Positions 2 to 25,440 of a stretch of DNA of 64,000 nt are shown piece after piece. The stretch's first letter is position 1, and every line of letters begins with the position of its first letter. The translations under genes were made by a program, and so were the position numbers. Source of the stretch: a virus. The stretch spans positions 12,467 to 76,466 of the IMG/VR virus record IMGVR_UViG_3300045988_108162; one strand, 5' to 3'. Below the pieces are notes generated by a model. It was not told where the DNA came from. It searched no databases and saw nothing but the letters and a program-made list of their open reading frames with translations.

Positions 2-3000
2 CGATCTAATGTTGCTAATGCTGTGTTTAAGGGGTTGGATGCAGAGGATATAGCAATGGAAGCATCAAATGATATTGCTGATTATGTAAATGACAATAAT
101 TTGTTTGATGATATAAATACGTTTTATTCATTATCAAGTCAAGCTTTTGATACAGCTAATCAGTTAAGGGAATTGCGTAATGAGATCAATGATCTGAATG
201 CTGAAATAGAGAGGTTGGCTACAACTCCGAGAAGAGTAGAGGACGGTAATGATACCGAAGCAGAGGCTATAAAACAAAAAACTATTAAATACGATAATCT
301 TAATAAGGAATATAGAAGGTTGTCAGAAGATCTTCTTAGTAGTTATAAAGAAGTATTTTATTCTTTTGATCCTGGAGTATCAGCTCTTGAGTTGTTTAAA
401 TCCGAAACGATAACTGCTGAAGATATATTAAAAGCTTATGATTCTGTTGCTTCTTTAAGCACTTATATCGAGAACAATAAGGGGAAGAAAGAAGCAGAGG
501 ATTTAAGAAAGATGGTGGTAAAATACCAGCAAGCTATTACCCAATATAAGGTTCTACGGTCATTCATGAACTCCATGCAGGATAAGAAATTTATGAGACA
601 CGATTTTTCTTTATTCTCTAAGTTCTTAAATGATATGGTATCTTCTAATACTGAATCTATAGAAAGTGATCGTTTTTATCAGACAGAGGGTAATAATGTC
701 AGTTTGGATGAAAAAATAAATGAACTCCTGAACAATGGTGAAATAGATTCAGATGAGGCATTTACAATGAAAGTATTTGGTCATTTAAATGATGGTATAA
801 CTCAGAAACCGAAAGAGGATATATTGTCTGATTTTGATTATGAGTTGGCTATGGAAGATCTTTTGTCTGCACCTATAGAGGTTAAAGAACGTATAGTAGA
901 CAAGATATATACAGGTAATCAAGATCTTTTATCTCCAAGAGAGAAGGAGATATATGATAAATACAAGCAGGATATTGATGATTACATATCATTTCTTGGA
1001 GACAGTCCGGCTAAGATGATAAAAGATTTATCAGATAAAGTTAGGAGACTTACTGAGCCTCGATCTGTGTATGAGGATAATAAAGCTATTATTGATATGG
1101 CTAAATCCAATTTGGAACCAGATCAAAGGAAGGAACTTGATGATGCTATTTCTTTGTATGTTGATATAATGAACAGACGAGATAAAGGGGAGAAAGTTGA
1201 CGAAGATAAGCTTGCCGATTCGGTATTTACCATAGAAGATCTTGGCCAGGTTGGAAACATCACGGATCTCCTTCCTTATATCGAACAGAACAGGATTATT
1301 GATAAAGGTCGTATTTCCGAATCTACGTTAAGTAATTTTGGGGAGGATGATGCTAATATAGATTCTCTTGTAAATGAATTAGACGAATCTGATAATACGC
1401 CGGGAGCCAATATAGATAGCGCCCAGAATCCAGAGACGTTGATGGTAAGAAGAATCTCCAACGACGGCAATGAAAGGTATGAAATTGCCGGTCTTAGAGC
1501 CGATAAATTTATATCTTCTATAAAATCATTGGTTCCTATTCAAATAAGCTCTGAAACGAACGCTAATGGCACTAAAAGGTATTCTCTTAACATAGGTGGG
1601 GAAACGGCTACTATAATTAAACTTCCTTATCATGCGAGATGGTCTATAGACAAAGAATCGGCTCGTGTTCTTAATCGCTACACAGATGTGTCTATTCAGG
1701 ACGTGGGTAATTCCTATTCTTTGGTTTATAAGCGTCTTGATTCAGATGAGTTGGTTCCGTACAGAACGGGTGTCGGATTCGGAGATAATGAGGTAGATAA
1801 AATAGATCAGGAAGCATTATCTTCTTTGAAAAAAGGAGATAAGGTTAATCTCGAAATAGATGTAAATGATACCTATAATCAGTCTCTTTTTGCCGAATAC
1901 AATGATGCTGTTCAGTCCGGCGATAAAAAAAGAATAGAATCTGCTGAGAATAAACTGGTGTCCAATATGGTTATCAAGGTCATGAGTGGAAACAGATTCG
2001 TTTCTGTTGTAAAAGCTGACACAGGAGGCATAGATGGTATAAGTAAGATAAGAAGAACGGCTTTTAACAAGTGGAAGAAGGACGCCGGCCGGTCGGCTAC
2101 CATCGGCGTCGGCACGCATGTTGTTGCCCAGACCCTTCCCGGAAGACCGGTGTTTAACATGAAGGTGAACGGTCAAGGATATGGCCAGGTAGAAAATCTC
2201 CCTATTACCGAAAAAGGTGCTGAAAAAGTATCTGATGTCGGATATGTATTAAATGGCAAAGTCGTGCTTAAGAACGGATCTAAATACACAGGCTTCCCAT
2301 TTGCTTATTCTATATTAAATGACAAGGGGAATAATTACAAAAATGTAAGAGTTCCGGTAGTTGTCATCAAAGGTAAAAACGGTCTTAATTATCTTTTCCC
2401 AGTTAGCCTGCGTTCTGTGGAATCAGAGGAAGGGCGGAAATGGATGTCTTTTATAGATATGCTGCTTGAATCCGGTGATTCTGAATTGCTACAGATGGGT
2501 CAAGATGATATACAAGATCTTAATGCGTATCTAACCAAGTTAGGCCTTGATCCGGCTTCGTATCAAGTATCGTATTTGAATCCTATTTCAGGGCTTAGAA
2601 AAGCTCGTGAGGCTATAGAAAAATTATCTACGGTTCCTGATGTTGTTAAATGGGTAGAAGATGAAAGCAGGAATGTGAAAGACATTGTGACGTCTGAAGT
2701 AGAATCTGGAATAGATTTCGAAGGTGAGATGTTTGTCGCTCCTAAGATCAGGATTCAGTTTGGTAAATCATCTTCCAGACCTAAATCACTTATAGAGGAT
2801 GATCTTCCTTTCTCTGATGAGGGTAAGACCGTTACTTCTAAAGAATACGTGGATGTTTATGAAGAGGAAATGCCAGAGGAAGGGGCTGCCCGGGAGACTC
2901 AGACGGCGCCATTAGCTCAGCCGGCTCCTGCGGCACAAGCTGCGCAGTCTTTACCTGGCAAGAAGCGTACCTCCAGGAAAAACTTCTCTCTTATGTTAAA

Positions 3001-4591
3001 CGAAATAGAATCTCATATAGAAAAAGAAGGATTGCCGTCTTATGCTAATATTTTTGATTTTATAGCAAGGAAGATTGTAGGAGGTGATTTGAGGTTTCTT
3101 CGTGAGAGAGGTAATCCTAAAAGCCTTAAGGAAGAAATGGGATTAGAACCTAAAGGAACAGTAGGTGATAAAATATCCACTCCTTCCAGTAAAGGTGGTA
3201 AGACTTTAGAAGAATATGTTTCTTGGCTTCGTTCTCAAACAGATCAGGTGGTGGTTGATTATGTTGGGCCAAGATCTGACGAACAAATTATATCAGAGTT
3301 GAAAAACTTTTTGAAATATATTAATTTTGTTCCAAGCAAGGCTTTGAATTATTCTCTTAGAGTCAATGGCATGGATACCCTAAAAGAATATGGCACAAAA
3401 GAGGAAGTAGAAAAAATGGAATCTGATATCAATAGTTTGGTTTCTAAAGTTTTGCCTACGGTGGATAATAAAACTGTAGAAGATGTTTCTACTGCAATAA
3501 AATCAAACAACTTGCCTGCCATATGGGAGCCCGTGGAAAGCCTTGATATGACAAACGAGGAAAAAATAGAGTTTTTGAATAACGTAGCAGATTTCCTTAG
3601 CGGCATACCAGAGTATGATGCTGTCGTGGAGTCTATAGAGTCAGAATCAGATAATATTTTAAATGATGGAAAAGAAGGAAGTGCAGAAGGCGGTGCAGTA
3701 CGCACTGAGGAAGATGGCGATAAAAAGGGAGATGGAGAAGGCAAAGGACAATCCAGAACAAATGTCGAAGTTGAAAGAAATGTCGAATTACCTGGATCTG
3801 AAGAAGGAAGAGTAGATAACTATAGGAAGAACGGAGATAAGTTCTCTGACATTGCTGAAGTTACTTTATGGCTACTTAGAAGGGCTGCCGGCATAACCTC
3901 TATCCCGGAAGGAGAAGAGGTTTATGTAGAGGGAGATGAGGTTAATAGTATTATGACCGATATGGAATCAAGGTATGGTATAGACACCATCAATCACTCG
4001 CATACGACTAAGGCTATAAGGGACCTTAACGGCGTATCAGGTTATAAAGTAGAATACGGCTTAACCTTTTTGACATACGATCCTTTTATTAGAATATCCA
4101 ATCTAAGGAAAGGATCTAAGGCTGCGAAAGACGAACCTCGTATATCCGAAGAGTCGCTTACTCACATATCAAGGGTGACAACCCCTTATTTCCTGTACGG
4201 CGGTGACGAAGCATATACATCTGTTCCGGCTAAAGTAGAACCTATACCGGAGAAGATAATGGGTCGTAATGGTATTAAATTTGGTATGAGTGTAGTCGAG
4301 CTAACCAAATTAGGGTACAAAAAAGCTGGTGGAAACTGGATATATAAATTATATATGAACTCAGGTGTGTATGATTTGTATAATATCAGTACCGGTGAAG
4401 CGTTTAGGGCAAAACCGAATCTTGGAGTTAAGATAAGTTCCAGTGCATTCATCCGCTCTTTATCTCAATCTGGTAGAAAAATACAAAATATGATGAGTAA
4501 TATGAGCCAGGAAGAGATAGACAGGAATAAGAATCTCGTAGAAGGTTCTGATAATTCGGATTCGATAAATGAGTTAAATAAAGAGTGTTAA
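2..4591 (+). CDS. Giant virion-associated/structural-module protein, C-terminal 1522 aa; 5' end lies upstream of the window
   Basis: The frame is open from the first window base to TAA at 4589-4591, about 4.6 kb uninterrupted in AT-rich DNA. It has acidic/Lys-rich low-complexity stretches and an Ala/Pro-rich linker near 2880-2950. No catalytic motif recognised, so the function is an inference from size and context. Confidence 0.7.
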   Translation, partial: RSNVANAVFKGLDAEDIAMEASNDIADYVNDNNLFDDINTFYSLSSQAFDTANQLRELRNEINDLNAEIERLATTPRRVEDGNDTEAEAIKQKTIKYDNLNKEYRRLSEDLLSSYKEVFYSFDPGVSALELFKSETITAEDILKAYDSVASLSTYIENNKGKKEAEDLRKMVVKYQQAITQYKVLRSFMNSMQDKKFMRHDFSLFSKFLNDMVSSNTESIESDRFYQTEGNNVSLDEKINELLNNGEIDSDEAFTMKVFGHLNDGITQKPKEDILSDFDYELAMEDLLSAPIEVKERIVDKIYTGNQDLLSPREKEIYDKYKQDIDDYISFLGDSPAKMIKDLSDKVRRLTEPRSVYEDNKAIIDMAKSNLEPDQRKELDDAISLYVDIMNRRDKGEKVDEDKLADSVFTIEDLGQVGNITDLLPYIEQNRIIDKGRISESTLSNFGEDDANIDSLVNELDESDNTPGANIDSAQNPETLMVRRISNDGNERYEIAGLRADKFISSIKSLVPIQISSETNANGTKRYSLNIGGETATIIKLPYHARWSIDKESARVLNRYTDVSIQDVGNSYSLVYKRLDSDELVPYRTGVGFGDNEVDKIDQEALSSLKKGDKVNLEIDVNDTYNQSLFAEYNDAVQSGDKKRIESAENKLVSNMVIKVMSGNRFVSVVKADTGGIDGISKIRRTAFNKWKKDAGRSATIGVGTHVVAQTLPGRPVFNMKVNGQGYGQVENLPITEKGAEKVSDVGYVLNGKVVLKNGSKYTGFPFAYSILNDKGNNYKNVRVPVVVIKGKNGLNYLFPVSLRSVESEEGRKWMSFIDMLLESGDSELLQMGQDDIQDLNAYLTKLGLDPASYQVSYLNPISGLRKAREAIEKLSTVPDVVKWVEDESRNVKDIVTSEVESGIDFEGEMFVAPKIRIQFGKSSSRPKSLIEDDLPFSDEGKTVTSKEYVDVYEEEMPEEGAARETQTAPLAQPAPAAQAAQSLPGKKRTSRKNFSLMLNEIESHIEKEGLPSYANIFDFIARKIVGGDLRFLRERGNPKSLKEEMGLEPKGTVGDKISTPSSKGGKTLEEYVSWLRSQTDQVVVDYVGPRSDEQIISELKNFLKYINFVPSKALNYSLRVNGMDTLKEYGTKEEVEKMESDINSLVSKVLPTVDNKTVEDVSTAIKSNNLPAIWEPVESLDMTNEEKIEFLNNVADFLSGIPEYDAVVESIESESDNILNDGKEGSAEGGAVRTEEDGDKKGDGEGKGQSRTNVEVERNVELPGSEEGRVDNYRKNGDKFSDIAEVTLWLLRRAAGITSIPEGEEVYVEGDEVNSIMTDMESRYGIDTINHSHTTKAIRDLNGVSGYKVEYGLTFLTYDPFIRISNLRKGSKAAKDEPRISEESLTHISRVTTPYFLYGGDEAYTSVPAKVEPIPEKIMGRNGIKFGMSVVELTKLGYKKAGGNWIYKLYMNSGVYDLYNISTGEAFRAKPNLGVKISSSAFIRSLSQSGRKIQNMMSNMSQEEIDRNKNLVEGSDNSDSINELNKEC

Positions 4592-4593
4592 GT

Positions 4594-5124
4594 ATGAGAA
4601 GGAGATTTTTTAATGCTGCGGATAATTTTGTGGGAGGATGTTATAATAAGTTATCCAATGAAGATATAAAAAGGCTTGGAGGAAAAAGACCTTATGTATG
4701 TCAGTTTAATAAAATTCATATACATATAGGGCCTGTATTAAAAGATCATGATTCCGATGTCAGTGATATAGTGTTTAATAGTGACTGGAATTATGGTAAT
4801 TATGAATCTACGGTTTATCATCATAGCAATAATGGTATTTTTATATTAGGTGGAAATAAAATTGGTAATATAGAAGACCATATGCAAGATCTAACATATT
4901 GGTACGAATATGATCCGAGTCTTAATGAAAATTATTGTTATTATTATTATGAAGCTGATAATAGTGGAAATGCTATTAAGTTGAATGGTGAGTTTAGTGA
5001 TGTTAGCACTGTTTTTAACATTCCCAGTTTGAAGGTTACCACTCTTCGTGATGGCAGTTTGAGTTTTTCAGAGATTTATATAGAAGGAGTTTGGGATCCG
5101 TCATTGTATAAGTCGATTTTATAG
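4594..5124 (+). CDS. MRRR-leader family protein A (N/Y/G-rich small protein; possible host-recognition or virion accessory protein)
   Basis: ATG at 4594 starts MRRRFF; the ORF track begins at an in-frame GTG at 4585. It lies 3 nt after the giant ORF's stop and sits inside the 47-bp repeat at 4560-4606. Confidence 0.6.
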   Translation: MRRRFFNAADNFVGGCYNKLSNEDIKRLGGKRPYVCQFNKIHIHIGPVLKDHDSDVSDIVFNSDWNYGNYESTVYHHSNNGIFILGGNKIGNIEDHMQDLTYWYEYDPSLNENYCYYYYEADNSGNAIKLNGEFSDVSTVFNIPSLKVTTLRDGSLSFSEIYIEGVWDPSLYKSIL

Positions 5125-5209
5125 TTAATTTTGAAAAAAGTTAATTATTATGGGTGTCAAATGTCAGATAGAAAAATTCGATAAATGAGTTAAATAAGGA
5201 GTGTTGAGT

Positions 5210-5788
5210 ATGAGAAGGAGATACGAAGATGTTTCAAGTTTTGTTCAGTATCAGTTGAAGACCAATCAGCAGGGGAATATAGAGGTTTATGTTGATGACA
5301 GGTTTGTTGGAAACGTAAGTGAAGGAGTCTGTAATTGGAAGGATATTGAATACAAGAGTAAGGTTACTATATCTTTGAAAGGAGTCGAGGATAAGGCTAA
5401 AACTTCAAGTAAAAGAGTCGGTCCTTATTGTCACATTTATAGCATATTTGGAGGAAATGAATCTTATCATGCAGGTCCGGATAGTAATATAAAAAAGAGT
5501 CCGGTTACCACCTTTATAATGTATTGTTATAAAAATGGGGATATTACAATTACCACTACTTATACTAAAAATTTATCTGGAACTCTTCAGATAGGTAAAA
5601 CACAATTGACTATCAATTACAAACAAAGTAAAAGTCAGTCTTTCTCCGGTGGTTCTGGAGATTATGTAACATCCGTATCTGATTTCCATTTTGTTACTGG
5701 TCCAGGAAATGATAGCGTTGAGTTCGAAGGAGAGGGAAGATTGATAGTTGAGACAGAGGCTTCGCATTATGAAATAGAAGTTTCATAA
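5210..5788 (+). CDS. MRRR-leader family protein B (S/T/G/Y-rich; body unrelated to A)
   Basis: ATG at 5210 starts MRRRYEDV. The second 47-bp repeat copy (5176-5222) precedes it and carries an AAGGAG ribosome-binding site created by an A-to-G change. Confidence 0.6.
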   Translation: MRRRYEDVSSFVQYQLKTNQQGNIEVYVDDRFVGNVSEGVCNWKDIEYKSKVTISLKGVEDKAKTSSKRVGPYCHIYSIFGGNESYHAGPDSNIKKSPVTTFIMYCYKNGDITITTTYTKNLSGTLQIGKTQLTINYKQSKSQSFSGGSGDYVTSVSDFHFVTGPGNDSVEFEGEGRLIVETEASHYEIEVS

Positions 5789-5803
5789 TTTCTATTTTTA
5801 TAC

Positions 5804-5811
5804 TATCTTTG
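5804..5811 (+). promoter_or_regulatory. Bacteroidota-type -7 promoter box TAnnTTTG (TATCTTTG) 19 nt upstream of the ATG at 5830
   Basis: TATCTTTGTCT here shares the core CTTTGTCT with the box upstream of the 2148-aa gene (16147-16154). Confidence 0.35.
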
Positions 5812-5829
5812 TCTAAAATATTTATCACT

Positions 5830-8088
5830 ATGGGTGTCAAATGTCAGATAGAAAAAAAGGAAAATGAAATAAAACGGGTTAAGGCTCCTAACGGGGAGCC
5901 TTCCGTTCTTTACGAAAGTGCTTTAAAAGTATTAGGAAACAGCGAGCGGGCCCTTCAGGTATGGGCTAAGGCTTACACTCCTGGTTTTTTGTCGTATTAC
6001 GGTCATTGGAATAACCCGGCTCCAGGGGAGATGTTTAACACCGATCCCAATGGCGAACCTCTTTTAGAAGATGTGCTGTCGTATATGAAGCGTCAGACTT
6101 ATTTTGCTGATCCTTTAACGGCTCAGGATGTTAAGGATGTAAGGGATTTCCTTTTGTCTACTCATTATTTTTTCAATGCGTCTTCATTGTCTAATGCTAT
6201 TCTCTTCGATTTTTATGTAGATGGCAGTTTGATACTGAATGAGCAGAAATTAAGGAGATCCGGTTTGTATGATGAAACAGAAATAAGTCGTATTTTATCC
6301 GATCCTTCTGTTTTAAACGAGGTTTCGACTTCCATGAGAAAGTTAATAGATTCTTCTATTAACGAACATGATAGGGAAAAAGATAATTATTTTATGTCTA
6401 TTGACTATCAGTATGGTCCTATTGTTTACAAGGAGGGAGTGTTTAACCAATTTGGTAAAAAAGTACCATATAATCCTTCTGAGCTTTATTATGCTATGCG
6501 TAAAACAGTAGCCGGCATAAAAAACTTTTCTGAATTTTCATCTGCTTTTGAATCGTTGAGAAATTCATATCCTGAACTGGTTGAGAAATTCGTTTCTGAT
6601 AAAGAATTTGCCGAATCTATGTTTGATGAGTTCTCATCTACGAATAAGATTCCGGTAATAAACATAGAAGGGGATGATGTGGTGGAAGGCAAGAGAAGAT
6701 CTTTGTCTAAGCTACAAGATCTTTCTTATTACAATTCCGGCAAAATAGAGTTCCTAAGAGCTCGTATATCAGCTTATTTACATAGGGCTAATGCCGACAC
6801 CGAATCCGATTTAAGAAGCATGATATGGGATATAGAAGAGGCTTGTACGTGGTTTGGCATAGATATAATAGGGACATCGGAAACTTATGATGGCACAGAA
6901 GAATCTTTGAATAAGATAGATAATTTGATGCTGGATCTTGATATTTATGTGGCCAGGCATAATGATGTAAATTATGCTCCAACGCTGGCATCTTCTATAG
7001 ATGATGTTCTTGGTGATAGTACAGACTATTATTTTGGATTATTGCCGGAGTATATGGATAATTTGAATATCGTTTATTCTGAATCCGATATAGACCCAGT
7101 AGAGGCATTTGAGAAACATTCATTGCTTAAGGTAGGAGATAATCTATATCAAAGGATTAGCAAAGATGATCTTAACGAGATGTATCAAATATCAACAGTA
7201 TTAGCCAAGCACAACCTAACTCATTTTTCTACTAAAATATATCCTGAATCTTGTTTTAAGAACGGCGTTTTGGATAAAGAGAAAGTACGGAACGTAGATG
7301 ATAATACGCTCATGGCTTCCATTAAAAAATACGTCAGATCGTTCATGGATTCTCAGAACACAGAGGACATGATAATGACCAGGATGGCGTTTGGGCACCC
7401 TGCGGTACTTGACGTTCCTTACGTGGATGTGGATCGGGAGTATAGTCGATACATGAACAAAAAACAAGATAGCGAAAACCCATTATCCTTATTCGATTTA
7501 TACCAATCTTACCTTGACAACAAACTCCATAAAACAAAATTATATGATAATGCCTATAAGTATCTTGACTTCAAACCTGGTCCATCTTTGGGTCTTATTT
7601 CTGATGATCCTGATATTTTGAAATCAATAGAATTATCTTTATCTGGAAAAGACAGGTTGATGTTGTTTGATTATAGCATGACCAGTACCGACCCTTCTTT
7701 ATCAGAATTGTTTTATTTGGAGAGGTATGACCCTTCGTATGCTGGGAATGATTTTGAACACTATTTTTACACCAGGCACCCGTATTTGTTAAAAGAAAAA
7801 TCGGGTTCTAATATCGTAGAGCAAGATGGTGTTATAACAGCAGAAGGTATTTATGATAATTTTATAAGAGTAGGTAATAAGATATGGTCTAAAGTAAGCG
7901 AGAGTAGTTCCGGCTCTATCTACCAAAATCTGACAGGAACCGAATCGGAGGTGAAATACGATTCTACTCAGAAGGCTAAGACGGTAGAAACTGATTACGC
8001 TCCATACCAAAACAGATCTGGCTTGACGCAAGACATGACCGTAAGCAAGTCTGAATTGGATGATCTTAACAAATTGGAATGCAGGTAA
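5830..8088 (+). CDS. Hypothetical large protein (752 aa), structural-module context
   Basis: A 2.26-kb ORF. ATG at 5830 (MGVKCQIEK) is preferred over the track's TTG at 5809, which lies inside the promoter box. It begins with the 28-bp repeat 5829-5856. Confidence 0.65.
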   Translation: MGVKCQIEKKENEIKRVKAPNGEPSVLYESALKVLGNSERALQVWAKAYTPGFLSYYGHWNNPAPGEMFNTDPNGEPLLEDVLSYMKRQTYFADPLTAQDVKDVRDFLLSTHYFFNASSLSNAILFDFYVDGSLILNEQKLRRSGLYDETEISRILSDPSVLNEVSTSMRKLIDSSINEHDREKDNYFMSIDYQYGPIVYKEGVFNQFGKKVPYNPSELYYAMRKTVAGIKNFSEFSSAFESLRNSYPELVEKFVSDKEFAESMFDEFSSTNKIPVINIEGDDVVEGKRRSLSKLQDLSYYNSGKIEFLRARISAYLHRANADTESDLRSMIWDIEEACTWFGIDIIGTSETYDGTEESLNKIDNLMLDLDIYVARHNDVNYAPTLASSIDDVLGDSTDYYFGLLPEYMDNLNIVYSESDIDPVEAFEKHSLLKVGDNLYQRISKDDLNEMYQISTVLAKHNLTHFSTKIYPESCFKNGVLDKEKVRNVDDNTLMASIKKYVRSFMDSQNTEDMIMTRMAFGHPAVLDVPYVDVDREYSRYMNKKQDSENPLSLFDLYQSYLDNKLHKTKLYDNAYKYLDFKPGPSLGLISDDPDILKSIELSLSGKDRLMLFDYSMTSTDPSLSELFYLERYDPSYAGNDFEHYFYTRHPYLLKEKSGSNIVEQDGVITAEGIYDNFIRVGNKIWSKVSESSSGSIYQNLTGTESEVKYDSTQKAKTVETDYAPYQNRSGLTQDMTVSKSELDDLNKLECR

Positions 8089-8161: not shown

Positions 8162-8844
8162 TTATATATGCACGTATATCAATAACATACAAGAAAAGTT
8201 AGATTTTCATTGTTTATGAATTATTTTTGTTAAGTTTGCAATATTAGTTTCAGGAAGGGATTATGGAAATAAGGAAAAAGTAAGAACCGAACGTAACTAA
8301 TAACAGTAGGAAATGAGAATCAGTACCATCAAACGTAACAACAGCATTCATCTTATGTATAAAAACATTATGAATGATTTAGGTCAATTAAGAACTGTAG
8401 TTTCAAAATCCTATATTTATAATCTGATACAAAATCAAACCGGATTAAGTATCAGAACTATATCCCATGTACTTAACCATACCAAAGAACAGGATACGGA
8501 TTCTTTGTGAAAAGCATGTATTTTCATACATTTGTTCGTTCTTTAGTTTTAGTAGGGAAAAGTTTTTCATGGTATTTTAGTTTAGATTAGTTGAGGCAGG
8601 ATTCGCAGTGATGCGGATCCTGTTTTGATTTACAGCGCTTTACCCAAAAAAGGAAAAGCGAAAGTTGCTGATTATCAATTTTTACCCATAAATGGGGAAA
8701 ACTACTCGTTGTATATTATATTTCCGTTTTTACTGAAATCCTTCCATTTTATCGGAAACAAACTCAGCCTTGTTCCACCCTGCAATCATGATCTTTGTTA
8801 CGTGCTTCATGCACGTATGTTTAACAATTAAATACTATAAAATT

Positions 8845-12292: not shown

Positions 12293-12504
12293 CCGTAGAA
12301 GAATTAGCTAATAAAAGATACGGTGGCGAATTTGTTTTCATGCTTGATCATTTGGAAGGTGTAACAAGATTCGTTTTTGAATGTTTCGATCCCAGACCTG
12401 ATCACGAAGGTAAAAATACTTATATGGTTTCCTATTTTGATAAGCGCATCCGTAGAAGAGACGTAGTAGATGTGCCGTGTTATATGAATATTTTGCCAAA
12501 ATAA
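12289..12504 (+). CDS. Hypothetical protein
   Basis: 71-aa ORF coupled to the upstream gene. Confidence 0.45.
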   Translation: MTVEELANKRYGGEFVFMLDHLEGVTRFVFECFDPRPDHEGKNTYMVSYFDKRIRRRDVVDVPCYMNILPK

Positions 12505-13367: not shown

Positions 13368-14231
13368 ATGGAATTAAAAGATTTTAAAGATGTGATTAGA
13401 GTAATGACAAAAGAAGAGTTCGAATCAACAATCGAAGAAGATATTAAATTCGTTGAGGGATTCAAGAATTTCTTAAAACATGATGATGCCACGAGGATAG
13501 TAGAGCATATCAAGTCTGTGTTAGAAGCATCAGTAGATTACTACTATCCTAATCATCCTGAAGTAGAATTTGAAAAAGATTTTAATATACAATACGATGT
13601 CAATAATATCTTGAACAAATACGGCCACACCGAAATGGGTATGTATAAAATACAGCTCTATATAGAGAATATTTTGGGTAGTATTCAAAACAAGAAGCCT
13701 GTAGACGTGGGAGAAGTCTCTGACGGATACCACACTTTCAATGAATTGTATCGGTATCGCATGTTGTATAACGCTGCCTTCTTTAATCTATTAGCCAGAA
13801 GCGGACAGGTTGAAGTTTGCAAATCAAGGAGACACAGCGACGGAGAAAAATGCTTCGGTTCTGATGATTGGTTTATTGTGATGGCGATCCTACCTACCGG
13901 TCAGGTATCTAATCACTATGAAAGCAAATACTGGGATTTGTTTGATGTTCCTGAAAGAGAAACCGCTTTCGAATACGATGGCCATACACCAAATGAAGCC
14001 TCCGACAGACTTGAAAAGTATCTCAAACTGCCTCGTCATGGCATGACATTCGAACAGGCTTTAGAACGGCTTAAATTAGGTCGTAAGATAAAAAGAATCG
14101 ATTGGGGTAAAAAGTATATCTGTATGTTTGACGTAAATATATTGATGATAGATACAGGTCAAAAAGTAGCATCAAATTGGAATCCAACCGAACATGATAT
14201 TATGTCTAATGACTGGGAGATTGCGGGATGA
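13368..14231 (+). CDS. Hypothetical protein whose C-terminus resembles the phage DUF2829-like module
   Basis: The C-terminus reads FEQALERLKLGRKIKRIDWGKKYI. The resemblance is recalled from memory and weak. Confidence 0.55.
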   Translation: MELKDFKDVIRVMTKEEFESTIEEDIKFVEGFKNFLKHDDATRIVEHIKSVLEASVDYYYPNHPEVEFEKDFNIQYDVNNILNKYGHTEMGMYKIQLYIENILGSIQNKKPVDVGEVSDGYHTFNELYRYRMLYNAAFFNLLARSGQVEVCKSRRHSDGEKCFGSDDWFIVMAILPTGQVSNHYESKYWDLFDVPERETAFEYDGHTPNEASDRLEKYLKLPRHGMTFEQALERLKLGRKIKRIDWGKKYICMFDVNILMIDTGQKVASNWNPTEHDIMSNDWEIAG

Positions 14232-22802: not shown

Positions 22803-23450
22803 ATGAAAAAAAATAGTATCTTGCAAAAAAAAATGAGAAGAAGATTTCAAATAGGGATGGGGGTAAATCCCTCGCTTATAATCAATAAAGGCATATACAT
22901 CCAACATGTAGATGGAGGATTATATACAAAACAAAATTGGTCTAATAAAGGATATTCCAATGATCTATGCAATGGAATAGCTCTTGTAGATAAAGTGTGT
23001 TTTGTTATAGCCACCGAATATATTGGCACATTTCGTTGGGGTAAGGATGGAGAAATAGACAATATATTTGCACAAGATAGTTCTCATATGGGAACTATTA
23101 AAAAGGATTATTGGGGGCGTGAAAATCAGAATGCGTATCTTGAATATGATACCAGTAATACAGATTACGCTTTTAATAAAGTTAATAGCTATTTATTTAA
23201 AAATGGTCAAAATGGATATGTAGGTGGCGCCGGAGAGTTTTTTTTGATATCATTGTATGCTAATGAAATAAACGAATGCCTTTTAATGGTAGGAGGTACG
23301 ATAATGAGTAATAGAATGTGGACATCCACTCGAAATGAAAAATTTACCTATTCGTGGTATTATGATATAAACATCCAAGGAGATCATTTGGATACAGGTT
23401 CAAGGGGTAGTTCACATTATGTCCGTCCTTTTACTGAATTAATTTTATGA
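22803..23450 (+). CDS. MRRR-leader family protein C (N/Y/G/W-rich)
   Basis: Alternative start at 22833 (MRRRFQIG). The first 11 codons contain an A8 and an A9 tract (MKKNSILQKKMRRRF). Confidence 0.55.
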   Translation: MKKNSILQKKMRRRFQIGMGVNPSLIINKGIYIQHVDGGLYTKQNWSNKGYSNDLCNGIALVDKVCFVIATEYIGTFRWGKDGEIDNIFAQDSSHMGTIKKDYWGRENQNAYLEYDTSNTDYAFNKVNSYLFKNGQNGYVGGAGEFFLISLYANEINECLLMVGGTIMSNRMWTSTRNEKFTYSWYYDINIQGDHLDTGSRGSSHYVRPFTELIL

Positions 23451-23454
23451 AATT

Positions 23455-23550
23455 ATGAGAAGAAGATACGAAAATGATATTAAGTTATACGAATATGTAA
23501 TAAATAGCAACTGTATAGGCGGAACCATATTCGTAGATGGAAAAATGTAG
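23455..23550 (+). CDS. MRRRY leader mini-ORF (31 aa) overlapping the next ORF
   Basis: Starts with the same ATGAGAAGAAGATAC leader. It ends at TAG at 23548, which lies inside a -1-frame ORF that opens at 23508. Confidence 0.35.
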   Translation: MRRRYENDIKLYEYVINSNCIGGTIFVDGKM

Positions 23551-23570
23551 GTGTCGTAAGCTCCAGTCCT

Positions 23571-24182
23571 TTGATTTACGTTACTCCAAAACCAATCATC
23601 TCTTCTATTAGTATCTCAGGGGGATTGCCCTCTGATAATAGAGAATTGATAGATACATATACTGAAAATAGTACAGATATTCAAGGATTAGATAAAATAG
23701 CTATAATTGTTTCTCCACAAAATGGAAATGATTATAATATTCTACACGTTAGTTTGCCTGTCATTAACTTTGTTCTTGTTTCTACTCCTATTACTTACAA
23801 AAAATATAAAGTTTATCATAATCACGCTCCAGAGTCTATTTACAATGTTGTTCCTGGATTATATAACCTGAATTACACCTACGAAATAAAAGAGGAGACA
23901 GATGAAGGGACACCTGGCAGCCCTACCTATAAAGCTCTTTACAAGAATGGTTCAAAATGGAATCTGGGGGTTGTTGATAGCAATGTCAATATAGAAGGTA
24001 GACTTAATAATACAGTATCGTTAAACACTGTTTCTATAATACATATTCAGTCTAATATACAAGATGATAGCTACATAGTATTTAAAGCTGACGTAAACCT
24101 GTGTCTAATAGATCCTTCTGATAGATATAACCCTGTATATAATAATACTATAACCAAACAATTGCGATATGAGTTCAAATAA
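23571..24182 (+). CDS. N/Y-rich 203-aa ORF with no ATG anywhere (the track starts it at a TTG); it may be the body of an MRRR family member D reached by recoding, or a pseudogene
   Basis: The frame is open from 23508 and has no in-frame ATG. It ends 40 nt before the bidirectional terminator. Confidence 0.4.
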   Translation: MIYVTPKPIISSISISGGLPSDNRELIDTYTENSTDIQGLDKIAIIVSPQNGNDYNILHVSLPVINFVLVSTPITYKKYKVYHNHAPESIYNVVPGLYNLNYTYEIKEETDEGTPGSPTYKALYKNGSKWNLGVVDSNVNIEGRLNNTVSLNTVSIIHIQSNIQDDSYIVFKADVNLCLIDPSDRYNPVYNNTITKQLRYEFK

Positions 24183-24222
24183 AAAAATAAGGTGATTATA
24201 TACAACTTTGCACCATCTATAT

Positions 24223-24268
24223 AAAACAGAAGCCGGATAATGATTAACGTATATCCGGCTTCTGTTTT
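24223..24268. terminator. Bidirectional intrinsic terminator at the strand-switch point
   Basis: Perfect 17-bp inverted repeat aaaacagaagccggata ... tatccggcttctgtttt with T/A tracts on both sides. Confidence 0.8.
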
Positions 24269-24274
24269 ATATGG

Positions 24275-24463
24275 TTAAAATTCTTTTTCGTTACCACCTT
24301 TTTTAGAGGTGGTTTTATCAAAAAGAGGGTCGTTAGGATCTGTTTTGGGATTATAGCTAAATACACCTTTAGCTATTCTCTTCATATCCTTCTCTAATTT
24401 TCCACTTTTACTACTTCTGATCGTAGTAGTGGTTGATATTGTGAATTTCTTATTTTTTTTCAT
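24275..24463 (-). CDS. Small basic protein (62 aa)
   Basis: Starts ATGAAAAAAAATAAG, an A8 run right after the ATG. It overlaps the transposase stop by 4 nt. Confidence 0.35.
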   Translation of the reverse strand: MKKNKKFTISTTTTIRSSKSGKLEKDMKRIAKGVFSYNPKTDPNDPLFDKTTSKKGGNEKEF

Positions 24464-25440
24464 GCCGTAATTTTCTTTAGTTGTGAATACCTTAATCGTC
24501 GTTTGGTATTCTGCAAAAATACATCGAATCTTTCAGATTCCGATAGATGTTTCGTGTTATATCTGAAAGATTCGCAATCTACATATCTTTGAAGATGTTT
24601 TCTCGACACCCAGAAATGGGTTCCAGAAATCATTTTCTTCAAATGGCTCCAATATCCTTCGATTGTGTTTGTTGATCTTCTGCCTATTACATACGCTCCC
24701 TTTTTGTGATATACTTTTTGATGATCAAACTTTTCTTTGTCGATCCCGTTATACGCATACCATTCGTCAGAATATATGGTAGAATTAGGGTGAACGGTAT
24801 TGTATATCAAAGGAAGTAAGGTTTTACCTTTTGTGTCTGTAACGACATAAGCGACAACAAATCCTTCTCGTTGGAGTGTCCCAAACACAGGGGTTTTATC
24901 TTTTAAAGATCTCCCCTGTGCATCTTTAACTTTATCCTTACTATGTCTATTCTTGTTTTTGCCACCAATATAAGTTTCATCCACTTCAATCTCGCCTTTC
25001 AAACACGGCTCTTTTATTTCAATACTAAAACAATTATGAATACGTTGAAGCATAAACCAAGCCGTTTTCTGTGTTACTCCCACGATTTTAGACAACTGTA
25101 AAGATGATACTCCTCTTTTCATTTCAACAACAATGCCTTTCCCTTCGATATTGATATACATCTTTCTTCCACCACATCCAAGGCTGTTCCATCCGCTCGG
25201 TACGTTTTCCACCATAGGCTTAAGCACCCAGCTTTCACCGTCTATCCTAATCCATCCAGGATCGTCTTTGTGCTTGTCGTACATATTTTGCCAAAAAGAG
25301 CATTCGTAGCACCATCCCTTGTCTTCCATGATAGTTCTTATCTCACACCTTTCAAATCCATCTGCATCCATCGTGTGCGGAGAATGAGGCTGGTGAGGGG
25401 TGCCACATTTTGGGCATACGAGTTTTAAATTCTTTTCCAT
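24460..25440 (-). CDS. IS1595-family (ISXO2-like) DDE transposase
   Basis: N-terminal CPKCG zinc ribbon. The HTH reads LSKIVGVTQKTAWFMLQRI and the catalytic core reads DETYIGGK...TIYSDEWYAY...NTIEGYWSHLKK...KHLQRYVDCESFRYN. An insert of about 100 aa sits between the ribbon and the HTH. Confidence 0.8.
   Translation of the reverse strand: MEKNLKLVCPKCGTPHQPHSPHTMDADGFERCEIRTIMEDKGWCYECSFWQNMYDKHKDDPGWIRIDGESWVLKPMVENVPSGWNSLGCGGRKMYINIEGKGIVVEMKRGVSSLQLSKIVGVTQKTAWFMLQRIHNCFSIEIKEPCLKGEIEVDETYIGGKNKNRHSKDKVKDAQGRSLKDKTPVFGTLQREGFVVAYVVTDTKGKTLLPLIYNTVHPNSTIYSDEWYAYNGIDKEKFDHQKVYHKKGAYVIGRRSTNTIEGYWSHLKKMISGTHFWVSRKHLQRYVDCESFRYNTKHLSESERFDVFLQNTKRRLRYSQLKKITA

Follow-up and report, generated by a model that had tools for sequence, protein, structure and literature searches.

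In the lambdoid phages, according to the model of Hendrix and Juhala, mosaic genomes reportedly arise by rare illegitimate recombination at gene boundaries, which is then followed by homologous exchange via the conserved flanks. Among human gut viruses the crAss-like phages are the most abundant, and their epsilon group is uncultured. Here we analyze a locus of an epsilon crAss-like phage contained in a 64,000-nucleotide stretch of the IMG/VR virus record IMGVR_UViG_3300045988_108162 (positions 12,467 to 76,466 of that record; the whole of this stretch is hereafter called the window). At this locus two small genes, A and B, which both start with codons for MRRR, are stacked between a giant structural-protein gene and a gene C, and are bounded by two pairs of short direct repeats that we term R1 and R2. 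By comparing related metagenomic loci we find that the inner copies of R1 and R2 are partial copies of the flanking genes made by a joining event, rather than pre-existing cassette sites, and that they very probably represent a recombination scar left when two alternative occupants of the same slot were stacked in tandem. The locus is thus a case of ordinary phage mosaicism that is unusually well documented, its scar having survived.

As in the lambdoid mosaics, unrelated genes are found here at one position, the sequence changes from one type to another at gene boundaries, short homologies occur at these boundaries and the variants have spread to many backgrounds. The slot likewise holds alternative unrelated genes, or none, between conserved flanks. 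In contrast to the lambdoid case, both parental alleles are kept in tandem, the scar is readable, both orders occur and counts can be given at the level of the population. Tandem segmental duplications formed by unequal or microhomology-mediated recombination (template switching of the MMBIR type) also join the downstream end of a segment to its own upstream end at an imperfect microhomology of 1-9 nt, and also create direct repeats that can later mediate deletion. In the present locus, however, the two units carry different, non-homologous genes, and the partners would therefore have been two different genomes rather than sister copies. Integron arrays share with the locus the stacking of small, promoter-poor, unrelated open reading frames (ORFs) in direct orientation with a repeated sequence at their boundaries; unlike them, the slot has no IntI, attI or attC-like palindrome, its boundaries copy the neighboring genes, and its junctions differ in length.

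A further parallel is offered by the internal proteins (IPs) of the T-even phages, which Rao and Black 2010 (PMC3012670, citing Repoila et al. 1994) describe as highly diverse injected proteins with only a short N-terminal capsid targeting sequence in common. The IP loci resemble the present one in coding for small unrelated proteins with a few common N-terminal residues, in forming hypervariable slots within the block of virion genes, and in the variation of the number and kind of genes between close relatives; A and B are themselves unrelated proteins that share only a short N-terminal leader. This leader, MRRR[F/Y], differs from that of the IPs in its length of five residues and its sequence, and packaging, cleavage and an anti-defense role, which mark the IPs, would be putative for the MRRR proteins. 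Moreover, the cargo proteins of crAss-like podoviruses are giant proteins (PMC10172136), and the MRRR protein of one relative matches tail-category PHROGs. In crAss001, giant proteins from the corresponding region are ejected as cargo, and the tail fibers dock via N-terminal residues (PMC10172136).

Anatomy of the repeats and of the slot

The sole phage in GenBank that matched the window is crAssE-Sib (OR575929), a complete genome of 151 kb from the human gut that belongs to the epsilon crAss-like phages and to the proposed genus Epsilonunovirus (PMC11054128). Its slot reads giant gene, R1, B, R2, C, with a single copy of each repeat, and the window has 616 bp more, comprising gene A and the junction that follows it. 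The features of the locus in the window are as follows:

23..4591, + strand: giant structural-protein gene, 3' part; the ORF, taken from the ORF list, extends past the window start
4560..4606, + strand: R1 copy 1 (original); last 32 nt of the giant gene, stop codon, 2-nt spacer and first 13 nt of gene A (MRRR + 1)
4594..5124, + strand: gene A, 176 aa, MRRRFFNA..., MRRRFFNAADNF..., allele group A1
5135..5176, + strand: R2 stub; partial duplicate of the spacer upstream of gene C and the first 27 nt of gene C
5150-5188, + strand: stub ORF of 12 codons, reading MGVKCQIEKFDK and then a stop; truncated start of gene C
5176..5222, + strand: R1 copy 2; partial duplicate of the last 32 nt of the giant gene with the MRRR codons, non-coding, upstream of gene B
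5210..5788, + strand: gene B, 192 aa, MRRRYEDVSSF..., allele group B1
5815..5856, + strand: R2 original; end of the B-type spacer followed by the actual gene C start, with the perfect 28 nt at 5829-5856
5830..8088, + strand: gene C, 752 aa; conserved right flank of the slot

A repeat search of the window recovered R1 at 4560-4606 and 5176-5222 (47 nt, 2 mismatches, 96% identity) and R2 as a perfect core of 28 nt at 5149-5176 and 5829-5856 (100%), which extends to 42 nt with 88% identity at 5135-5176 and 5815-5856. With up to 3 mismatches tolerated, each pattern occurs exactly twice in the 64-kb window, and neither is matched in 100 dinucleotide-preserving shuffles. An original prediction, made by reading the letters of the window, had described a 47-bp repeat with two mismatches before two MRRR genes, a perfect 28-bp repeat at the start of gene C whose other copy leaves a 12-codon stub against the second 47-bp copy, and the layout of giant ORF, A, stub, B and C; we reproduce all of these, coordinates and anatomy included. 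It had also called the two MRRR genes otherwise unrelated, and indeed A and B show no detectable similarity beyond MRRR, which leaves the notion that they are diverged alleles of one gene unsupported.

The R2 stub abuts R1 copy 2 at 5176 with an overlap of 1 nt. At the inner junction (5135-5222) the beginning of gene C thus runs directly into the giant-gene end. The B-only phage crAssE-Sib has one R1, with the same sequence as R1 copy 2, and every single-gene relative that we recovered has just one copy of R1.

Arrangements of the slot among close relatives

We performed three scans of IMG/VR, anchored on gene A, gene B and the tail of the giant gene, and together with the window and crAssE-Sib these yielded 139 distinct locus sequences among the matches listed. 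The dataset 3300045988 dominates this limited sampling, and the numbers that follow are therefore counts of forms and not frequencies:

A only: 66 of 139 loci
B only: 41 of 139 loci
A-B, the window included: 8 of 139 loci
B-A, with a different junction: 8 of 139 loci
A or B with a TnpB insertion element or its remnant: 16 of 139 loci

In the scan anchored on the flank (119 loci listed), A and/or B stand beside the giant tail wherever the downstream sequence is readable, and no third type of cassette was found among these close relatives. Accordingly, the slot is a polymorphic accessory-gene position that normally holds A or B in this population of epsilon crAss-like phages. The original prediction had proposed that gene B is a module that can be inserted or exchanged, to be checked by looking for variants between the same borders in related contigs. 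That check turns up one gene (A or B), two genes (A-B or B-A) and interrupted forms between the same flanks, which bears out the exchangeability of B and extends it to A.

The comparison refutes, however, an adaptive reading of the two substitutions that the prediction had pointed out in R1 copy 2, said there to create an AAGGAG ribosome-binding site and to turn TAA into TGA. Both sites are freely polymorphic across the 139 loci and segregate in every context; AAGGAG with TGA is the most frequent form of R1 before A and before B alike, and it is copy 1 of the window (AAAGAG with TAA) that has a rare combination.

The two tandem orders are marked by two distinct junctions (a caret marks the join). 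All A-B loci share one, ...CAGATAGAAAAA^TTCGATAAATGAG..., and all B-A loci in the census share the other, ...CAGATAGAAAAA^TAAGAATCTCGTAGAAGGTTCTGATAATTCGGATTCGATAAAT... (the stub joined to TAAGAATCTCGTAGAAGG...), which keeps 65 nt of the giant-gene tail as against 32 nt in the A-B junction. The crossover in the B-A loci lies in an imperfect microhomology, AGATAG(A/G)AA, between the start of gene C (AGATAGAAAAA) and the giant tail (AGATAGGAA^TAAG). The junction of the window, GATAGAAAAA^TTCGATAAATG, exists in neither parent and is identical in 7 contigs from IMG/VR and 4 other metagenome contigs. The latter 4 come from an extra metagenome scan for the stub followed by a non-A base, which recovered 9 contigs from independent studies beyond the census: these 4 with the A-B junction, 4 with the B-A junction and 1 (L285) with the short junction between B and A. 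In L285 (5951-7158; ERZ1027087 NODE_659) the order is B, a short junction of the A-B type, and A, with the A1 and B1 alleles; we take this order as unconfirmed because the contig has 4.9x coverage and the assembly graph of an A-B genome, if traversed the other way round the repeats, would yield it too. If true, it would mean that the repeats have mediated re-ordering.

The two classes of tandem also differ in their alleles. Gene A of the A-B genomes belongs to group A1, whose other members come from A-only and A+TnpB genomes, and that of the B-A genomes to group A2, which is also common in A-only genomes; the two groups differ at about 44 of 528 nt. One group of B alleles is present in 8/8 B-A genomes and another in 6/8 A-B genomes. 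The first 1.5 kb of gene C is nearest to B-only genomes in 6/8 A-B loci and nearest to A-only genomes in 5/8 B-A loci, as would be expected if the downstream parent had supplied the second gene. The upstream flanks have mixed affinities. In the window both flanks are nearest to the B-only genome L082 (99.7% and 99.9%), which suggests that the segment with A and the junction was later moved into that background by homologous recombination. Separately, the run of T that follows the MRRR codons of gene A varies in the B-A loci, with T5 in L118 and L119 (a frameshift) and T9 in L125 (in frame) in place of the usual T6, a difference that errors of sequencing or an unstable homopolymer may explain.

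Origin of the tandem

The most economical account of these forms would be a single offset crossover or template switch between co-infecting A-type and B-type genomes. During a mixed infection, an A-type genome would have been cut short, by breakage or by incomplete copying, at about nt 27 of gene C, and its end would have been linked to a B-type genome at a point 32 nt ahead of the giant-gene end. The link would have been made by recombination, either illegitimate or guided by microhomology, or by a switch of template in replication. Such a joining would have duplicated 28-42 nt of the start of gene C (R2) and the 47 nt of the giant-gene end with the MRRR codons (R1). A similar event with a 65-nt copy of the giant tail and other alleles would have produced the B-A genomes, and the tandem would later have spread to other backgrounds through homologous recombination in the long flanks. 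As the inner copies are truncated pieces of the flanks, A and B would each, at one time, have had the giant gene and gene C as immediate neighbors; each having thus been a sole occupant, the change would have run from single-gene to tandem forms. Through the short direct repeats A could now be lost by R1 x R1 recombination and B by R2 x R2, and fusions and possibly re-ordering could occur as well. One derivative is seen at 2501-2848 of L276 (a Logan ERR13957346 contig), where residues 1-62 of A are fused in frame to the C-terminal 53 aa of B between an intact R1 and R2, with the join at a microhomology of 3-5 nt; this fusion derives from an A-B tandem by a microhomology deletion. Among database proteins, P0025, P0052 and P0056 correspond to A or B with internal deletions.

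Several points weigh against this reconstruction. Its direction is one that we infer rather than observe, and some of the single-gene genomes could be deletion revertants of tandems. The microhomology at the window junction is weak, amounting to 1 nt and a nearby TC.GATA similarity, and all the comparison data are metagenome assemblies, many of them from the IMG/VR dataset 3300045988. Further, both types of junction break R2 at the same place, in a run of A7 at codons 9-10 of gene C, which points to a hot spot or common ancestry rather than to two fully independent events. This shared breakpoint possibly reflects a hot spot of slippage or breakage, shared ancestry (one event followed by a 32-nt deletion and re-assortment) or a cut by a nuclease.

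The relatives furnish a candidate for such a nuclease. Two different TnpB-only insertion elements, coding for TnpB proteins of 410 aa and about 390 aa, are present in the same slot of relatives, though not of the window, where they lie after A, after B or inside genes:

L003 4560-5972: TnpB insertion
L131 4620-6025: TnpB insertion
L116 4580-5815: TnpB insertion
L136 and L148: TnpB insertions inside gene B
L018 4600-4810: remnant of a TnpB insertion

The ORFs of L003 (410 aa) and L116 (390 aa) match PF01385 (OrfB_IS605; E 2e-20 and 1e-17) and PF07282 (Cas12f1-like TNB; E 2e-12 and 5e-20), and thereby combine the OrfB_IS605 RuvC-like and the Cas12f1-like TNB zinc-finger domains of the IS200/IS605-family TnpB proteins. 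The element with the 410-aa TnpB sits exactly at the start of gene C, at YTAT(G)^GGGTGTCAAATG, in 9 A-type loci and 1 B-type locus, the corresponding sequence of the empty slot being YTAT^GGGTGTCAAATGTCAGATAGAAAAAAAGG; the TnpB copy of crAssE-Sib is too diverged to set the ends of the element, and for the other copies the ends are approximate. Since TnpB is inserted within gene B in L136 and L148, B is dispensable at least in these two.

Given these insertions, the breaks that formed the tandems could have been made by the RNA-guided nuclease TnpB, with a guide matching R2 that cut empty genomes in a mixed infection, after which the broken end would use a microhomology to prime synthesis in the giant-gene tail of a different genome. 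Such a cut would account for the R2 breakpoint common to both junctions. The 410-aa TnpB element occupies YTAT(G)^GGGTGTCAAATG in all of 10 relatives; counted along the would-be guide-matched target, the stub breaks off at position 23-25; and the A1 group contains 8/8 A-B loci and 6/9 loci with an intact TnpB element downstream of A. Nevertheless we consider this origin of the breaks rather unlikely. The guide, the transposon-associated motif (TAM) and the cut site are all putative, and an Rfam search of the inserted element for a guide RNA gave no match. By an account attributed to Karvelis et al. in 2021, ISDra2 TnpB reportedly cuts 15-21 bp from the TAM, and the breakpoint here would be 2-4 nt past this textbook cut. 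The A7 homopolymer alone could be a hot spot for slippage or template switching, and common ancestry of the two junctions would make any hot spot unnecessary. The stacking of two alternative occupants could also be read backwards, with an ancestral A-B or B-A tandem and the A-only and B-only genomes as deletion products via the copies of R1 or R2. Recombination of R1 with R1 would delete A and that of R2 with R2 would delete B, giving exactly the single forms observed, and microhomology deletions do happen in the slot. We hold this reversal to be very unlikely, for the inner repeat copies are truncated and non-functional, which implies that each gene once directly abutted both flanks; in addition, the tandems are a minority (16/139), each tandem class holds only a subset of the diversity of A and B alleles in single-gene genomes, and among more distant relatives the slot is empty in one and occupied by a single gene of another kind in others.

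The original prediction had favored an integron-like or tail-fiber-cassette-like exchange, in which R1 and R2 would be the recombinase sites of a dedicated site-specific system for MRRR cassettes, such as an integron, a shufflon or a tail-fiber switch. The occurrence of the cassettes singly, in both orders and in arrays would suit such a system, as would the identical R2 breakpoint of the two junction types and the reverse order, B then A, with a short junction in L285; the last, however, is the low-coverage contig for which a path through the assembly graph offers itself. The structural signatures of such a system are lacking. When the junction (5125-5225) was folded as single-stranded DNA it gave -1.2 kcal/mol (z = +1.12), with 178/200 shuffles equal or better, and hence no attC-like hairpin, and no inverted repeats involve R1 or R2. 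The annotation of the complete crAssE-Sib genome includes no integrase, invertase or other recombinase of the site-specific kind, and none emerged in Pfam scans of the flanking window ORFs, which covered a part of the ORFs of the window. The borders are not carried by the cassettes: single-gene genomes have each border once and no extra site, the right breakpoints are unequal (32 versus 65 nt of giant tail), and other MRRR genes lack conserved flanking DNA and differ in their MRRR codons. The integron-like part of the proposal is therefore not borne out, and the tail-fiber switch fares no better, the repeats being direct, A and B being complete ORFs on the same strand, and no recombinase having been found, in contrast to the invertible systems of Gin, Cin or Rci, which have inverted crossover sites, a recombinase and alternative C-terminal segments on a constant N-terminal part. 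In sum, a dedicated cassette system strikes us as extremely improbable. We attach next to no credence to the remaining option, that the repeats are an assembly artefact created by a chimera of co-occurring A-type and B-type strains. Mixtures of such strains clearly co-exist and the comparison data are metagenome assemblies, but the junction exists in neither parent and its parts overlap by 1 nt, so that no shared k-mer could mis-join A-type and B-type sequences; the same junction recurs identically in the 7 IMG/VR and 4 other-study contigs, and a derivative fusion (L276) exists.

The MRRR[F/Y] genes beyond the slot

Tandem stacking of alternative occupants thus remains our preferred reading of the slot, and the wider distribution of MRRR genes places it in a broader setting. 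Homologues of gene C were recovered down to 22% identity, and their contexts were examined at 69-43%, where the content of the slot varies as well:

L268 (gene C 69%): slot empty, with a 26-nt spacer
L270 (gene C 53%): at least four unrelated genes, each starting MRRRF
L271 and L272 (gene C 47%): a KilA-N/ANT or Bro-N/ANT antirepressor-like gene
L273 and L274 (gene C 43%): one 152-aa MRRRYMAN gene

One of the MRRR genes of L270 codes for a Gly_rich_2 protein, for which the match to tail-category PHROGs is at E 1e-7. L271 (2906-3934) and L272 (2951-3934) have identical gene C proteins and differ in the presence of KilA-N versus Bro-N on an otherwise identical ANT gene, which amounts to a domain swap within the cassette.

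The window itself has a second slot of this kind, downstream of another giant ORF, of 2148 aa:

22833..24182, + strand: second MRRR slot
22833-23450, + strand: gene D, MRRRFQIG...
23455-24182, + strand: gene E, MRRRYENDIK..., MRRRYENDIKLYEYV..., with a frameshift in an A5 run at 23541-23545

When this region is compared with crAssE-Sib (109702-110773; L277 403-1474), D is conserved and the next gene is unrelated: in the place of E, crAssE-Sib has a 149-aa MRRRFENIKT... gene, and the homology breaks straight after the MRRR codons, at 23475. The first 37 residues of E resemble gene B (41% identity). Addition of one A restores an ORF of 242 aa in E, and the frameshift could denote a pseudogene, a sequencing error or slippage-dependent expression. 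A candidate assignment of gene D as DUF1566-like received no support from Pfam. Adjoining the slot, in a part of the window without a counterpart in crAssE-Sib (23476-25120), is a 326-aa ORF (24460-25440, - strand) with an ISXO2-like DDE transposase domain (PF12762, E 4e-42) of the IS1595 family.

In all, A, B, D and E share the start MRRR[F/Y] with no fewer than 8 other distinct genes of relatives, and the view of the original prediction that the MRRR genes form a real class is thereby upheld. In crAssE-Sib there are exactly four MRRR-start ORFs of 50 aa or more, all of them MRRR[F/Y] and all within the block of virion genes. The fourth of these, at 63285-64007 (L275 3286-4008; MRRRFLIKNRE..., 240 aa), is closely followed downstream by a TnpB gene and the gene for the muzzle protein, so that an MRRR gene is again the neighbor of a TnpB element. 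The arginine codons of the MRRR genes vary between AGA, AGG, CGA and CGG; as they differ among cassettes, the leader is conserved as a peptide and not as a DNA site. The possibility that the MRRR codons act as a border at the DNA level, through a 13-mer containing AAGGAG, is ruled out by the use of CGA, CGG or AGA in other MRRR genes. Within the searchable literature we came across no mention of the MRRR[F/Y] motif.

Searches with the proteins of the first slot were largely uninformative. The giant protein has an orthologue of 2208 aa in crAssE-Sib that is annotated 'structural protein', and Pfam and PHROG searches gave no match for it, nor did PDB searches give a significant one for either giant protein. 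Genes A, B and C found no match in Pfam or PHROGs, nor any significant one when gene C and the profiles of A and B were compared with the sequences in the PDB; AlphaFold2 models of A and B from shallow alignments (pLDDT 35 and 41) were unusable. Remote relatives of gene B (27-44% identity) have the same N-terminal domain and mostly Arg-rich starts. A scan of the locus for sigma-70 promoters and terminators stayed at chance level, the sigma-70 consensus being unsuited to Bacteroidales phages.

Two further observations concern neighboring regions of the window. Downstream of gene C (window 8632-8721 versus L001 9813-10918), crAssE-Sib has about 1.1 kb extra, annotated as a repressor-like gene and an antirepressor, and this constitutes another indel hot spot adjoining the slot. 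At 13368-14231 (+ strand) the window codes for a 287-aa protein with a WDGH domain (E 6e-36) and a Tad2-like (Thoeris anti-defense 2-like) domain (E 7e-11), making it a candidate anti-defense gene.

The locus provides a clean example, at the scale of a population, of the gain, loss and shuffling of small accessory genes in crAss-like phages, as both parental forms are visible together with the two tandem products, whose junctions can still be read, and with a chimeric fusion and insertions of transposons. The slot would serve as a natural insertion site for engineering and as a strain marker, and the MRRR[F/Y] leader is a handle for finding virion-associated or injected accessory proteins. Taking these strands together, we tentatively raise the possibility, on balance a doubtful one, that MRRR[F/Y] is a functional N-terminal tag of exchangeable small proteins found across the clade, whose cassettes are shuffled with TnpB-made breaks perhaps accelerating the process. 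If so, the tag would be a signal for incorporation into the virion or for docking to the tail, carried by genes in hypervariable slots beside the giant virion-protein genes, and the stacking, swapping and fusing of these genes would let a phage population vary its cargo or display toward its Bacteroidales hosts. The scars at R1 and R2 would then be a snapshot of that process, and the crAss-like phages would have an equivalent of the internal-protein system of T4.

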